From the IMG/VR virus record IMGVR_UViG_3300045988_101411: a DNA stretch of 33,213 nucleotides. One strand, 5' to 3'. Under the pieces are notes generated by a model. That model made no database searches. It worked only from the letters and a program-made list of their open reading frames with translations, and was not told the DNA's origin. Of this stretch, positions 7,271 to 11,875 are shown in pieces (the stretch's first letter is position 1; the number at the start of each line of letters is the position of its first letter). Source of the stretch: a virus. Lineage: Duplodnaviria; Heunggongvirae; Uroviricota; Caudoviricetes. Both the position numbers and the translations under genes were made by a program.

Positions 7271-8350
7271 TTAATCTGAGTCCATTTTCCCAAACTCTGT
7301 CAGGCCGAAAACGGAGCTACCAGAAACATGAGCTTGTAAGCCCGCTTCCTGCATGTCACTCAATTCAACTTCTTGGCTATCCTCTAATCCGATAGAGAAC
7401 ATGGGATAGGCCCAGTTCCAATTCGGATCAGGAACCAAACTATTATTCTCTATCTTGAAAAAGCTGACCATGAGATGATGCCTTCCCTGTATCGCCTCTT
7501 CATCATTGATGTTGACCAGTACACCAAAGTGCTTGTAGCCGGCTTGTCCATTCTCGAACATTTTTATCTTGGTGCCGTTTCTGAACATCCAAAAAGAATG
7601 ATTTCCAGTGGAATCAGCGACCTGCAAGTTATCTTCGTCAATTTCCCAATTAAGATATTGTTTGATATCAGACTTTGGTTTGAGTTTTTCGTCATTACTA
7701 AACCATTGTATTGCCGGAAGTGGAAGGTGAAGACCTTCCGGCTGGGGAGGCTGACCTGCAGCAATGGAATGCATGATCTCTGTCATTGATGGAAGCCCCA
7801 TCAAATGCCATACATCATGGATATCCTTTTTAAGTATAAGAAGCCCTTTGGATACACCATCCGCGTAAGTTGACTTTAAGCGGACTAGTATGTCCTTGTT
7901 ACCATCTTTGTCGAGGTCTTCAATGTTTACTGAAGAAGCCACAACCTCGTCGTCCCCTGCGTCTGGGATGATTGCCCAATACCCAATATCGTAGAATCCA
8001 GGTCTGCCAACCACCTTATCTATCAAACTCTGTCCAGAGGGCTCGAAGACCATCAGGAAACGGCTAAGGGCACCATTTGTGCTCACAGCTCTTCCGTAGA
8101 CTACAACGGAGTTTGAGGTGCTTAGATCGAGAGACTCGCTAGCCACTGAGTCAAACGCCACTGAGTCCAAATGTGTGGCAAGCTGCTGCTGGATGCACTC
8201 CCGAGCCATTTCAACTAATTTTTCGCGAACATCAGCAGATCGTATTGGCTGTGAAGTGAAATGGAAAAGCCCTACTGTAGCCGCTATGCCTATTATTCCC
8301 GAAATAACGGTACTTAGAACCTGCTCCTTTACCACTTTCACAACTTTCAT
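7271..8350 (-). CDS. Cargo gene at the Z/fun hotspot: membrane-anchored protein of unknown function (about 359 aa from ATG 8350; track gives a GTG start at 8380)
   Basis: N-terminal hydrophobic helix VLSTVISGIIGIAATVGLFHF; DLDKDGNKD (DxDxDGxxD) motif encoded at 7892-7918; AT-rich relative to backbone; located between G and FI where P2 carries Z/fun. Confidence 0.8.
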   Translation of the reverse strand: MKVVKVVKEQVLSTVISGIIGIAATVGLFHFTSQPIRSADVREKLVEMARECIQQQLATHLDSVAFDSVASESLDLSTSNSVVVYGRAVSTNGALSRFLMVFEPSGQSLIDKVVGRPGFYDIGYWAIIPDAGDDEVVASSVNIEDLDKDGNKDILVRLKSTYADGVSKGLLILKKDIHDVWHLMGLPSMTEIMHSIAAGQPPQPEGLHLPLPAIQWFSNDEKLKPKSDIKQYLNWEIDEDNLQVADSTGNHSFWMFRNGTKIKMFENGQAGYKHFGVLVNINDEEAIQGRHHLMVSFFKIENNSLVPDPNWNWAYPMFSIGLEDSQEVELSDMQEAGLQAHVSGSSVFGLTEFGKMDSD

Positions 8351-8678
8351 CAATAGCTTCTTCAACTTCACTTCAGGCACCTAAATACTATTAAACTTGT
8401 CATGGGAAAATCCGATTATTATTGTAGAGAACAACAAAAACTGGCCTCGATTTTAGAGTTTTTCCAGTATCTATTTTCCGACTCGTTCGGCGGTAATCCA
8501 CCGTTATATTCATGAGGCCGGGGTGCACTATAATATTCAACTATATACTCTGTTTGTAGTGGCACATTAAATTTGGTGACAGATATGCATCACGTCCGCT
8601 CCTAGCACAGAGCGGACAGTCAGATTAGGTTTTACTCTGTGCCATAGATGAGTAATCTCACACCAGAGCTAATACGAT

Positions 8679-9257
8679 TTATTGCGGCATTTCAGGCCAT
8701 TCTATATCCGGAGCATTTTCCGGCTGAACGCGATTAAGTAGCACACGGTATTTTTTCCAGTGTGTCAGGCTTAACTTTTCTTCCTCGGTAGCCATATCTA
8801 AATCGACAGCATCCTGCAGCATGGCAATGATTTCACCTGCATATGCAATCTGCTCTTTCTTCTGAGACTCAGCCGCTCTGACAAGTGCATCACGCTCTGC
8901 ATTCTCATCATTCACCCACGCATTTCCGTTCCATTTCTGATAATCCCCCTCCGGGGAAATGGCTGTCACGTCTGGAGGTAATGCGCCAAGTTCAGAAATA
9001 TAAATGGCTGCTCCCGTTTTCGTTTCGTAGACAGTCTTTCCGCGATGATCTTCCATCAGTTCCCATTTCATTTCATCTGCATTGAAAACGGCTGCATAAC
9101 CAGCAGGAATATCAGGTGGTGCAATATCTGTACTGTTTGCAGGCAGGCCAGTATACGGCGGAATATATGCATCACTTTCGCCAATAAACTCATTGGTTCC
9201 ATCAAGTAAATTGAAAACGCGGATAGTTTGTGCTTCCGCACTCATTCTGAAAGCCAT
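8679..9257 (-). CDS. G: Tail fibre assembly protein (Tfa), 192 aa
   Basis: Immediately downstream of H with 1-nt overlap; Tfa-like composition; P2 gpG position (P2 G is shorter, about 175 aa, as recalled). Confidence 0.8.
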
Positions 9258-11875
9258 TATGCAAGCCTCACAATATAGTTAAATGCGATGTTTTTGACGG
9301 TGTTTTCGGTATTACCAGTAGCATTTACGGTAATGGAATGCCCGTGTGAGCCAATAGCAACAGTGTGTGAATGTGCACCAATACCAACAGTATGGTTATG
9401 TGCTCCAATGTCGACTGTATGTGCATGATTGCCTGATGAACTTGTAGTCGTAGCACCTTTATCACTTCGCGGAACACCATAATCTGCACCGCCTGATTGC
9501 ACGCTCACAGCAAAACCGACGGTATGTGTATGATTGCCAGAAGTATTGGTTGATTTTGTGCCGTGGTTAAACGTACTGACTGTTTTTGTCCCGTAATCAA
9601 ATGAACTGGTCGTTTTCGTTCCTAAGTCCGTATTTGACGCACTGGCGCTGTGAGTATGCGATTTAATCCCGTCCTGTTCCTGTGACAATACGGCACGCCC
9701 ACTGGCGGGTTTGCCCTTGATTGTCCAGCCGCGCATATCAGGAATAACACCAGAAGGATAGGCAATAGCCAGTTTCGGATATGCAGCCTTATCAAACGTC
9801 TGCCCCTGCATGATCGCATAGCCTGCAGGTGGTGTATCTGATGGCCACGGCAGCGGAACACCTGGCGGAAACGCTTCAATATTTGCCGAGCCGTCAAATT
9901 TTACGCCGTTAATTGTCCTTGGCGTTTTCAGCTTTGTAGCTGTAGCCGCATTGCCGGACAGTTCGCCTGAAATACCGGCGCTGAAGGTTTGTTTCGCCGC
10001 CCATGTCTGAGCTTCGTCGATAATTGGCACACGTCTTGTCGTGATCGTGCGGCTTCCCGGATTTCCTGAAATACGCACCATAAAAAAGCGGTAGTTCGCT
10101 TTACTTACAGTGCTGCGCCATACATGCATTGAGCGCCCCGTACCGGAATCATCACTCGGACCAACTGCGATGTTTATCAGGTTGCCATCAATGACGCCCC
10201 AGTCCATACCGTCGGGAATGTTGGTCATGTTATCAAGCCGAACGGTTATCAGACTGCCCGGCACAAAGTCGTAGGTCTGCCAGTCCAGACTGGATAGTTT
10301 TGCCACTGCGCCACCGATGCCCAGATTCAGAGGCAACGAAAAGGAGTTATATACTTCTCGCCATTCGGTCCATTTGCTCCCGGCATAGACGCGCTCAAAA
10401 GTGCGCCCCTGTGTGGTTTCTGATTTCCCTGTGGTTGTGTAACGCTGCCAGACAGATACACCATCAAAACGCCTGATTACTTCCAGTATTCCAAGCAGTG
10501 TCGCTCCAGCGGTATCCTGCATTGGACCGTTTGACGCCTTCCCGGTAACGCTGTAAATGCCTGGCGAAGTCAGATCATTCAAATCACCTTCGTAATAACG
10601 ACATTCTGACTGATGGCCTACTCTTGACCACGGCTCCCACTGTGGGTTCTGTGCATTCCATGTAGCAGAAAGGCAGCGAACATATACGTTCCCACGGCGG
10701 GTCGTATAGCGTTGCGTGCGTGAGTACCCACCACCCTCAAGAACTTCAAGGAATCCCTGACCATAACTTCCTTCTTCCGGATAGTTGCGGTCAAATGAAG
10801 CGATAGAGCCACTACTGTTTCGCCATAAACCAAGATGCTCTGCGCCTCCTAGCGTGTTCAGGTCAATAGTTGTGCTCAGGGGGCGTGTTGCAGACTGAAT
10901 CTGACGCCAGTAGCTCCACGGACCGTCTGAGCCATTCCAGGTGCCAGAAAGATTACGCATATAAACATTGCCAGTTCTGGTGGTATAACGCTGCATTCCG
11001 GAAAAATTACCGCCATTGAATACCTCAAGAACACCGACTGCACCGTCTTCAGGGAAATTTTTCTCCAGTGTTGCGTTGGAGGATGTGGATTTATACCAGA
11101 CACCCACATAAGCCTTAACTGGACCAAATGTATTGAGATCAGCATCAACCGGCATTTCGCCGTTGTTTTTCATAAACGTCAGGCTGGTAACACCAATATT
11201 GTCCAGAAAAGCTGATTTATCCTGGATATCTGCACCGTTCTGATTTTTCGCCAGACGTGAATTTGCGTTGTCATTTGCTGCCTTGACCGCTTTTGGCGTT
11301 GCCGCCAGCTCTTCACTGGTGCTGTTTGTTGCACTGCTTAACTGAGTAAAACCTTTTTCTGTCAGCGTGGCGTCAGGATGGCGGCGGGACTGCTCATGCT
11401 CTGCGATTTTGTCATCGACGTAATCCTGCGTCGCCATCACTGTACTGGCATCAATACTCAGCTCAACGGACGCCACGTTACTGACAATAATAACCATGCG
11501 GCAGGTCTGCGCACGTCCGGAGCCTTCAGCCAGTTCTGGCTTATAGCTTTCTGCCATGTTGGATACCGCAATCAGTGTTCCGGCATCGTCATACAGACCA
11601 AGTTCACGCATCCAGAAGCCGCCCACTTCTGGCGGTACAACCAGTTCAGCCACAATATAGTTTTTATTCTTATTATCCACACTGACTTTATTCAGAGCGT
11701 GACGCCAGACCTCATGCACCAGTTTCGTCTGACCGGCATCCGGCACCGGCAATTTGCCATTACCGTCACCCACGGCCATTGCAGACAGGTTTACTTTTTT
11801 CCCGCCGGGGACAGTGGCGGCTGCCAGCTTTGCGGCTCCGGCAGTAGTGATAACGGTTTTAAATTTCGTGCTCAT
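9257..11875 (-). CDS. H: Tail fibre protein H, 872 aa, with divergent His-rich C-terminal receptor-binding region
   Basis: Position after I-J; much longer than P2 H (about 669 aa as recalled); C-terminus carries repeated HxH motifs ([35 protein letters not shown]). Confidence 0.85.

Follow-up and report, generated by a model that had tools for sequence, protein, structure and literature searches.

A P2-type tail fibre with a gp37/Stf-type receptor-binding tip and a lambda-type Tfa chaperone: an ordinary swap of host-recognition modules

Unrelated phages have been known since the 1980s-90s to exchange gp37/Stf tips together with their chaperones. The receptors of T4 are LPS and OmpC, which are touched by a metal-free head. 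The domain limits of the T4 gp37 tip (D10 collar and D11 needle) and its seven Fe sites are taken from the description given in PMC6957217, whereas the T4 tip structure (doi 10.1073/pnas.1011218107) and Hashemolhosseini 1996 (PMC178498) are represented here by what is reported of them in PMC6957217, PMC3157838 and PMC9659904. According to work cited in PMC9659904, gp37 and gp38 are functionally replaceable by lambda Stf and Tfa. The Tfa chaperones themselves are modular, with a variable N-terminal domain that binds the fibre and a conserved C-terminal domain that trimerises (PMC9608196). Magaziner & Salmond 2022 (PMC9659904) described a 'T4- and lambda-based RBP family', found on phages of differing morphologies, whose C-terminal tip of about 215 aa diverges only in the T4 specificity region and is followed immediately by a gene of the gp38/Tfa type. 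The tail fibre gene H and the adjacent gene G analysed here fit this description exactly, without any difference of kind. H/G is a real but ordinary, already catalogued swap of host-recognition modules and contains nothing new.

The window (the whole stretch of DNA that was analysed, 33,213 nucleotides from the IMG/VR virus record IMGVR_UViG_3300045988_101411) belongs to a P2-like E. coli prophage and encodes H as an intact ORF of 872 aa on the minus strand (9257..11875, with the stop codon at 9257-9259); the parts of H and gene G that are located below are on the same strand. The assignment is based on the ORF list, on the Pfam domains PF12571, PF03406 and PF07484, and on gene order: the late operon around H reads V-W-J-I-H-G-(cargo)-FI-FII, as in P2, when the window ORFs and the RefSeq annotation of an identical locus are compared with the P2 annotation. 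In PHROGs, H matches the tail fibre family phrog_295 (E=7e-128). The N-terminal part of the protein (aa 1-207, 11255..11875) consists of a conserved fibre N-terminal domain (PF12571, aa 1-151, E=1.3e-57) and one 'phage tail fibre repeat' (PF03406, aa 170-211), shows 84% identity to aa 1-207 of P2 H in BLASTP, and presumably attaches the fibre to the baseplate. It is followed by a shaft (aa 208-640, 9959..11254), a 26-residue linker motif (aa 641-666, 9878..9955) and a tip that comprises the last ~220 aa. Just downstream of G lie a fragment of IS3 and a cargo gene of foreign origin; the cargo ORF has no match in PADLOC or Pfam.

This architecture is best explained, with high confidence, by a three-part mosaic in which a P2-type N-terminus, an E. 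coli P2-like shaft and a gp37/Stf-type receptor-binding tip are combined and served by a lambda-type Tfa, the tip module having been gained in the linker and its head exchanged later. A phmmer search of the PDB aligns H aa 653-872 with residues 16-242 of the T4 gp37 chain 2XGF (E=6e-77); none of the other solved tips matches H in this search. In BLASTP comparisons, the tip of H shows about 59% identity to T4 gp37 785-1026 over 249 aa, 58.6% (likewise about 59%) to lambda orf314/Stf, and 95% to residues 902-1107 of Stf from the lambdoid phage Chlobot. These alignments establish true homology of H aa 653-872 with lambda Stf and with the T4 gp37 tip of the crystal structure, so that the resemblance of the HxH repeats to T-even long tail-fibre tips, which had been pointed out in the first-pass annotation of this DNA, is in fact part of a full-length homology. 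Given that a ~59%-identical structure has been solved, the fold of the H tip can be considered fixed; an AlphaFold2 prediction for H aa 636-872, a monomer model of what would be an intertwined trimer, made from a single chain without an alignment, has a pLDDT of 39 and a pTM of 0.18, too low for the model to be of use.

The N-terminal part of the collar (aa 667-738, 9662..9877) contains the Collar domain PF07484 (aa 672-719, E=2.5e-10, 40.6 bits versus the cut-off of 24) and corresponds, by the 2XGF alignment and residue mapping, to residues 811-881 of the T4 gp37 D10 domain. The C-terminal collar strand (aa 856-872, 17 residues, 9260..9310) corresponds to D10 residues 1010-1026, and the last 15 residues of H (the last 17 in the comparison with T4 gp37) recur unchanged in T4 gp37, in lambda orf314, in Chlobot Stf and in H of phage P24A7b. 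Between these two parts lie the descending and ascending arms of a needle stem and, at its far end, a hypervariable head of 30 residues (about aa 785-814, 9434..9523), the predicted receptor-contact end, which falls within the divergent block of a five-protein alignment. On the model of the solved T4 homologue, the collar would be built from three H chains, each of which would descend along a thin six-stranded needle and return. Metal ions (Fe2+ in T4) would staple the core of this needle, every ion being bound by the HxH motif of each of the three chains, with six predicted sites in H versus seven in T4; for H, the identity and occupancy of the metal are extrapolated from T4. The distal loop, the only strongly variable part, would serve as a small head that touches the receptor.

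In T4, the counterpart of the head region is the last part of the stem together with the tip subdomain 932-959. The variable insert of H sits where this subdomain does, but both stem and head are shorter in H (for the head, about 18 aa versus the 28 aa of the T4 tip subdomain). Because the H head is 10 residues shorter and unalignable, the T4 receptor-contact residues are not transferable, and because its sequence is unrelated to that of T4, the LPS- and OmpC-contact residues of T4 are not conserved. In lambda Stf (orf401/orf314; Ur-lambda), the needle is longer, with eight HxH motifs in orf314, and the head is larger and different. The tip described here also differs from both relatives in its mounting: it is carried by the P2-type fibre of a contractile tail, as opposed to lambda Stf, and not by the distal half-fibre of T4. 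The receptor of H probably differs from those of P2 and T4, and a host range distinct from that of P2, as proposed at the first pass, is a reasonable inference from the sequence.

Gene G (192 aa, 8679..9257) encodes a tail fibre assembly protein, and its ATG overlaps the stop codon of H in the sequence TAATG; this junction and the surrounding bases are nearly identical to the lambda stf/tfa junction. Pfam detects PF02413 at aa 72-192 (E=2.8e-40), and aa 73-192 match the Mu Tfa chain 5YVQ_B (E=7e-10). In BLASTP, G is 65% identical to lambda Tfa over the full length and 29% identical to T4 gp38, whereas the similarity to P2 G (40% identity) covers aa 95-192 only, the N-terminal half of P2 G being unrelated. 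By sequence, then, G is a lambda-type Tfa, the type that accompanies gp37/Stf tips, and its N-terminal, fibre-binding half is of the lambda and not of the P2 G type. This fibre-specific half would match the type of the tip, and the conserved C-terminal half would be a generic trimerisation domain, such that G would be needed to start trimer folding at the C-terminus of the fibre. It is conceivable, if on the whole doubtful, that, with the tip as described, G also stays on the mature fibre tip, as reported for its counterparts in Mu and Ur-lambda, and takes part in receptor recognition or modulates it. Such a role would agree with the closer relationship of G to lambda Tfa than to T4 gp38, given that the Ur-lambda and Mu chaperones are present in mature virions and T4 gp38 is absent from them (PMC9608196). 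However, G of the window and G of P24A7b (98% protein identity) are 97% identical at the nucleotide level despite completely different heads of the respective fibres, which speaks for recognition of the conserved needle or collar by G and against a head-specific contribution.

In the window, neither H nor G is interrupted, the two genes are translationally coupled, and all the neighbouring tail genes are intact ORFs. The dN/dS values are low, 0.05 for the shaft in comparison with H of phage P24B2 and 0.09 for the tip in comparison with Chlobot, which indicates purifying selection and, for the tip, constraint at the protein level. These observations make it unlikely that H is a relic in a defective prophage, with a tip that no longer serves infection, even though the IS3 fragment and the cargo gene next to G would suit such an origin and H is annotated as pseudogene fragments in a 99.9%-identical copy from strain 19KM1831, where the fragmentation more likely results from assembly indels.

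The mosaic boundaries become apparent from a comparison with P2 and P24B2. P2 H (669 aa) resembles H in the N-terminal 207 aa, genomic position and gene order, but the BLASTP alignment ends at aa 207; P2 H lacks a collar domain and possesses a different C-terminal receptor-binding region (about aa 394-669), which was not found in H. The first-pass annotation was correct in describing H as about 200 aa longer than P2 H (the difference is 203 aa) and in proposing that the C-terminal tip had been replaced, but the extra length is not a matter of the tip only, because H departs from P2 H throughout the part that follows aa 207. The shaft contains three ~80-aa repeats (aa 249-328, 341-421 and 434-510) with 33-46% mutual identity in direct alignments, which are not listed by a self-BLAST of H; a sequence search with aa 209-635 gives no PDB match at E up to 10. 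The shaft occurs in many E. coli P2-like phages, its closest relative being that of P24B2: the H genes are 97.95% identical over nt 1-1952 of H, after which the similarity stops abruptly, and the proteins are 97% identical over aa 1-673, after which P24B2 continues with a P2-type tip and, unlike H, aligns to P2 H 394-669. The break at nt 1952 falls inside the linker motif, which is common to P24B2 H, P24A7b H and Chlobot Stf (aa 780-806) and marks the shaft/tip crossover zone, and the GC content, which is 51-53% in the shaft, falls to 42-47% in the tip and in G. The tip module would have entered the P2-type fibre by recombination in this motif.

An ordinary ancestral C-terminus of P2-family H, colinear with P2 H and acquired without any exchange, would be in line with the P2-like N-terminal 207 aa and gene order and with the occurrence of such a tip on several Peduoviridae. 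This explanation is nevertheless very improbable, being refuted by the end of the P2 H alignment at aa 207, by the abrupt loss of DNA similarity to P24B2 and by the absence of any HxH motif from P2 H and from the shaft-sharing P24B2 H (both sequences were scanned). The drop of the GC content in the tip also speaks against it, as does the distribution of the junction: a query that spans it is matched in 119 of 5,426 complete E. coli genomes, just 119 of the 297 in which the H shaft is present.

The mosaic interpretation is further compatible with the placement of the HxH motifs. The descending arm of the needle stem (aa 739-785, 9521..9661) contains KSHTHSA (HxH at aa 740-742, window 9650-9658) and GNHTHTV (aa 782-784, 9524-9532), which align with the T4 HxH motifs 883 and 915. 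The ascending arm (aa 814-855, 9311..9436) contains GNHAHTV (aa 817-819, 9419-9427), GAHNHTV (aa 826-828, 9392-9400), GAHSHTV (aa 835-837, 9365-9373) and GSHGHSI (aa 844-846, 9338-9346), aligned with T4 HxH 966, 980, 989 and 998. Six of the seven iron-site motifs of T4 are thus in register with H by residue mapping, and the one without a counterpart is HxH 929 at the stem/tip border. The first-pass annotation had listed the last five of these motifs as tandem repeats; all five lie inside the interval to which it had assigned them, with KSHTHSA just outside, but the tandem array does not hold. Even spacing, at 9 aa, is limited to the last four motifs (TRF reports a 27-nt period with 2.2 copies at window 9351-9409), and GNHTHTV lies 35 aa upstream of the next motif with the variable head in between, so that the motifs occupy two hairpin arms instead of one array.

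It is highly improbable that the iron-loaded needle is primarily a 'Ferrojan horse', in which bound iron mimics siderophore cargo and engages iron-uptake receptors instead of acting as a structural staple, given that the receptors of T4 are met by the metal-free head. This idea can draw on the six predicted metal sites and on published considerations of iron-binding fibres (PMC11705849), but the T4 irons are described in PMC6957217 as buried in the needle core and required for folding. Finally, the notion that the HxH motifs are a chance, low-complexity or out-of-frame artefact without a structural role, for which one might invoke the richness of the region in G, S, T and H and its short DNA repeats, can be dismissed, being refuted by the 2XGF match, by the register of the motifs with the iron sites of the solved structure and by shuffling, in which six HxH were reached in 0 of 100,000 permutations of either the whole H or the last 237 aa (the means being 0.44 and 0.65, respectively), which excludes chance, and being also at odds with the dN/dS of the tip.

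The mosaic is a nested one. P24A7b (Peduovirus, P2-like; LR595887 / NC_049390) encodes an 874-aa H and a 192-aa Tfa with the same overlap and has the same three-part fibre, in which the linker, collar and ascending stem, as well as G, are 97-98% identical to those of the window at the nucleotide level. By contrast, the N-terminal and shaft regions are ~80% identical, and the head cassette is a different one, with 29-53% nucleotide identity confined to aa ~781-810 in a sliding-identity comparison. The head of H instead shows 98-100% nucleotide identity to the side tail fibre of Chlobot, in a match that covers H nt ~2113-2659. In Chlobot Stf, a further domain of ~95 aa, which H lacks, separates the linker motif from the collar. 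A transfer of the tip and G as one block from one donor was ruled out, since the tip of Chlobot is 95% identical to that of H and its Tfa is 65% identical to G. Because the tip and G have different nearest relatives (Chlobot for the head, P24A7b for G and the scaffold), the exchange of the tip together with its chaperone that was suggested at the first pass stands for the type of module but not, demonstrably, for a single event.

At a later stage, recombination in the conserved flanks would have exchanged the head with that of a lambdoid side tail fibre. There is about an even chance that this was a recent cross-family transfer of a ~60-180-aa specificity cassette (the head and the adjoining stem) between the Stf of a lambdoid siphovirus (Chlobot) and a P2-type myovirus fibre with a P24A7b-like scaffold and chaperone, with the collar, GTK-repeat and HxH-stem DNA as flanking handles for homologous recombination. 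If so, the metal-binding repeats would be a structural staple and, at the same time, the sequence substrate through which receptor specificity can move from one E. coli prophage to another, unrelated one. Tetart et al. reportedly referred, in 1998, to 'His boxes' in g37 recombination; the term was not met for g37 recombination in the literature searched.

The locus opens no new question, and its use lies in annotation and host-range prediction: the ~30-aa head (window ~9434-9523), and not P2 ancestry, is the place from which to read the adsorption specificity of this prophage. It also provides a clean natural example of the module boundaries employed by fibre engineers, namely, the linker motif, the collar and the HxH stem. 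The same chimeric fibre is found in the Peduoviridae P24A7b, STYP1 and ev015, and the head allele of H is carried by a lambdoid phage and by 61 complete E. coli genomes, ST131 strains among them.

The H gene (window 9257-11875, minus strand) encodes an 872-aa tail fibre protein and carries the tip feature at its 3' end. It is directly followed by G (8679-9257), whose ATG overlaps the H stop codon (TAATG) and whose 192-aa product matches PF02413, the tail fibre assembly (Tfa) family. The P2 I and J positions are filled by ORFs upstream of H, and a 369-aa ORF followed by tail sheath and tube ORFs lies downstream of G; the gene order is that of P2, J-I-H-G-(cargo)-FI-FII. In H, Pfam identifies a tail-collar fibre N-terminus (PF12571, aa 1-151), PF03406 (aa 170-211) and a Collar domain (PF07484, aa 672-719). 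A prophage in the chromosome of E. coli 19KM1831 shares 99.9% identity with the stretch. In RefSeq, H of that strain (L007 4001-6619, corresponding to window 9257-11875) is split into three pseudogene fragments, whereas H in the window is intact; the fragmentation is probably due to indel errors of that assembly and not to real decay.

The first-pass annotation described H as about 200 aa longer than its P2 counterpart, which is correct (P2 H has 669 aa, an excess of 203 aa), and as ending with five tandem HxH-containing repeats. All five lie within window 9257-9600, but the count is short by one and "tandem" is inexact: a sixth motif, KSHTHSA at aa 740-742 (window 9650-9658), is located just beyond this interval, and among the HxH starts (aa 740, 782, 817, 826, 835 and 844) regular spacing, of 9 aa, is restricted to the last four. 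TRF run on the DNA reports a 27-nt period with 2.2 copies. The observation itself is real, and chance is excluded because six HxH motifs were reached in 0 of 100,000 shuffles of either the whole protein or its last 237 aa (mean counts 0.44 and 0.65, respectively).

A phmmer search against all PDB sequences matches H aa 653-872 end to end with the receptor-binding tip of T4 gp37, known from a crystal structure (2XGF, E=6e-77), so that the resemblance to T-even fibre tips suspected at first reading is one of homology. In BLASTP comparisons, the tip is 59% identical to gp37 785-1026 and 58.6% identical to lambda orf314, which forms the C-terminal portion of the side tail fibre Stf. The lambdoid phage Chlobot has a side tail fibre of 1107 aa, whose final 206 aa are 95% identical to the tip in the same comparisons. 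The T4 tip consists of the collar D10 (residues 811-881 and 1010-1026), the stem (882-931 and 960-1009) and the tip subdomain (932-959); in the needle, histidines of the three chains hold each of seven iron atoms arranged along its length (PMC6957217). Mapped from these limits, H comprises a collar (aa 667-738 and 856-872), a descending stem (aa 739-785), a head (about aa 785-814) and an ascending stem (aa 814-855). Six of the seven gp37 HxH motifs are in register with H; the remaining one, HxH 929 at the stem/tip border, is missing because the stem and head of H are shorter. The last 15 residues of H are the same in T4, lambda, Chlobot and the P2-like phage P24A7b, and the head is the sole unalignable part of the tip, the very place where this tip family diverges (PMC9659904). 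A single-chain AlphaFold2 model of the tip has a pLDDT of 39, too low to be of use.

The C-terminus of H is not colinear with P2 H, which aligns with aa 1-207 only (84% identity) and contains no HxH motif; it is a replacement, and a nested one. Over its first 651 codons, H is closest to that of another P2-like phage, P24B2 (97.95% nucleotide identity over H nt 1-1952), but the similarity ends abruptly after nt 1952, and P24B2 H goes on into a P2-type C-terminus followed by a 175-aa P2-type G. The break sits at the start of a 26-residue linker motif (H aa 641-666) common to P24B2 H, P24A7b H and Chlobot Stf, and GC content, 51-53% in the shaft, is lower in the tip and G (42-47%). Sliding nucleotide identity to P24A7b is 97-98% throughout G and, within H, in the linker, the collar and the ascending stem, whereas the head island (aa ~781-810) shows 29-53% identity to P24A7b versus 98-100% to Chlobot Stf; similarity to Chlobot is high between H nt ~2113 and ~2659 and fades away from this segment in both directions. 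Given this P24A7b-like scaffold with a Chlobot-like head island, the present H looks, from these alignments, like a chimera of the P24A7b type that has traded its specificity cassette with the side tail fibre of a lambdoid phage. The crossovers can be placed within window ~9520-9647 and ~9216-9431, and no more finely, because all three sequences are too alike there. Chlobot Stf (L003 1298-4621) has an extra ~95-aa domain (aa ~807-901) between the linker motif (FDGS...) and the collar, which is missing in the P2-type chimeras; therefore, the linker motif can be followed either by the collar itself or by an additional domain in between.

The G protein is 65% identical to lambda Tfa across the whole length, 98% identical to P24A7b G and 29% identical to T4 gp38 (E=9e-21), with P2 G matching over aa 95-192 only and Mu Tfa (5YVQ_B) over aa 73-192 only. 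These partial matches fit the two-domain model of Tfa (PMC9608196): the N-terminal domain is variable and attaches to the end of the fibre, and trimerisation is driven by a helical C-terminal domain that is conserved. The bases around the stop/start overlap at the lambda orf314/tfa junction are almost identical to those of the H/G overlap, unlike those of the P2 H/G junction. Thus, the proposal that tip and chaperone were exchanged together holds insofar as the chaperone type accompanies the tip type, a lambda-Tfa-like G with a lambda-like junction. Arrival of the pair in one event from one donor is rejected, since the tip is 95% identical to the Chlobot protein but the Tfa only 65%. Because G is nearly identical in the window and in P24A7b despite their differing heads, it may recognise the conserved needle or collar, not the head. 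G may stay on the mature fibre, as is reported of the Ur-lambda and Mu chaperones, or come off it like T4 gp38 (PMC9608196).

By analogy with T4, lambda and Mu, three H chains would trimerise from the C-terminus with the aid of G, each running down and then back up the needle, and the head at the distal pole would touch the receptor; six metal ions (Fe2+ in T4), each bound by the HxH motifs of three chains, would staple the core. The T4 receptors, LPS glucose and OmpC, are contacted via residues 932-959 (PMC6957217), and because these have no counterpart in H, a receptor differing from that of T4, and from that of P2, is likely. A dN/dS of 0.09 between the tip and that of Chlobot, and of 0.05 between the shaft and that of P24B2, indicates purifying selection, which supports a functional H protein.

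The shaft contains three ~80-aa repeats (H aa 249-328, 341-421 and 434-510; window 10346-11131, minus strand) that are 33-46% identical and share an invariant LEV...QRYTT...W..W pattern. No Pfam family was found for the repeats, and a sequence search of PDB found no relative of solved structure for the shaft; the repeats may resemble the knobs seen in R-type pyocin fibres.

The tip of H is real and the interpretation given to it in the first-pass annotation is supported, but it is already known. Tail-fibre segments are reportedly exchanged horizontally among P2, P1, Mu, lambda and T-even phages (Haggard-Ljungquist et al. in 1992 and, likewise, Sandmeier in 1994), and Tetart et al. (1998) are said to have proposed conserved g37/g38 motifs as recombination sites. 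It is textbook knowledge that the 3' end of T4 g37, together with g38, stems from sequences like those of lambda (PMC3157838), and gp37 and gp38 are functionally replaceable by lambda Stf and Tfa, according to the statement in PMC9659904 that cites Montag 1989. Magaziner and Salmond (2022) describe over 200 phages, whatever their morphology, as one family with this ~215-aa tip and a gp38/Tfa gene directly downstream (PMC9659904). In the phage collection, the tip matches 650 records, and the same arrangement is present in the Peduoviridae P24A7b (874-aa H and 192-aa Tfa), Salmonella phage STYP1 and Quadragintavirus ev015. Some match to the query occurs in 3,678 of 5,426 complete E. coli genomes, the H shaft type in 297, the shaft-tip junction in 119 and the exact head allele in 61, ST131 strains among them. 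Apart from adding a further member and a neat case of nested mosaicism, H brings nothing new. The exact head allele (window 9216-9647) occupies 75 places in the 61 genomes, some of which have two; such duplicates may lie on separate prophages of the same cell.

The 369-aa ORF (window 7271-8380, minus strand), between G and the tail sheath gene, corresponds to a 359-aa RefSeq hypothetical protein (WP_001516654.1); in P2 this slot holds fun(Z), and in P24A7b and P24B2 other small genes. Its sole match is phrog_15038, of unknown function, with none in Pfam or PADLOC. The protein is hydrophobic over a stretch close to its N-terminus, the GC content is 40-49%, and the gene is a cargo candidate for lysogenic conversion or anti-phage activity. 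The intergenic region 8381-8678 has a GC content of 40%. RefSeq places a fragment of an IS3-family transposase between G and the cargo ORF of 19KM1831, at the equivalent of window ~8419-8553, which suggests how the slot might have been remodelled.
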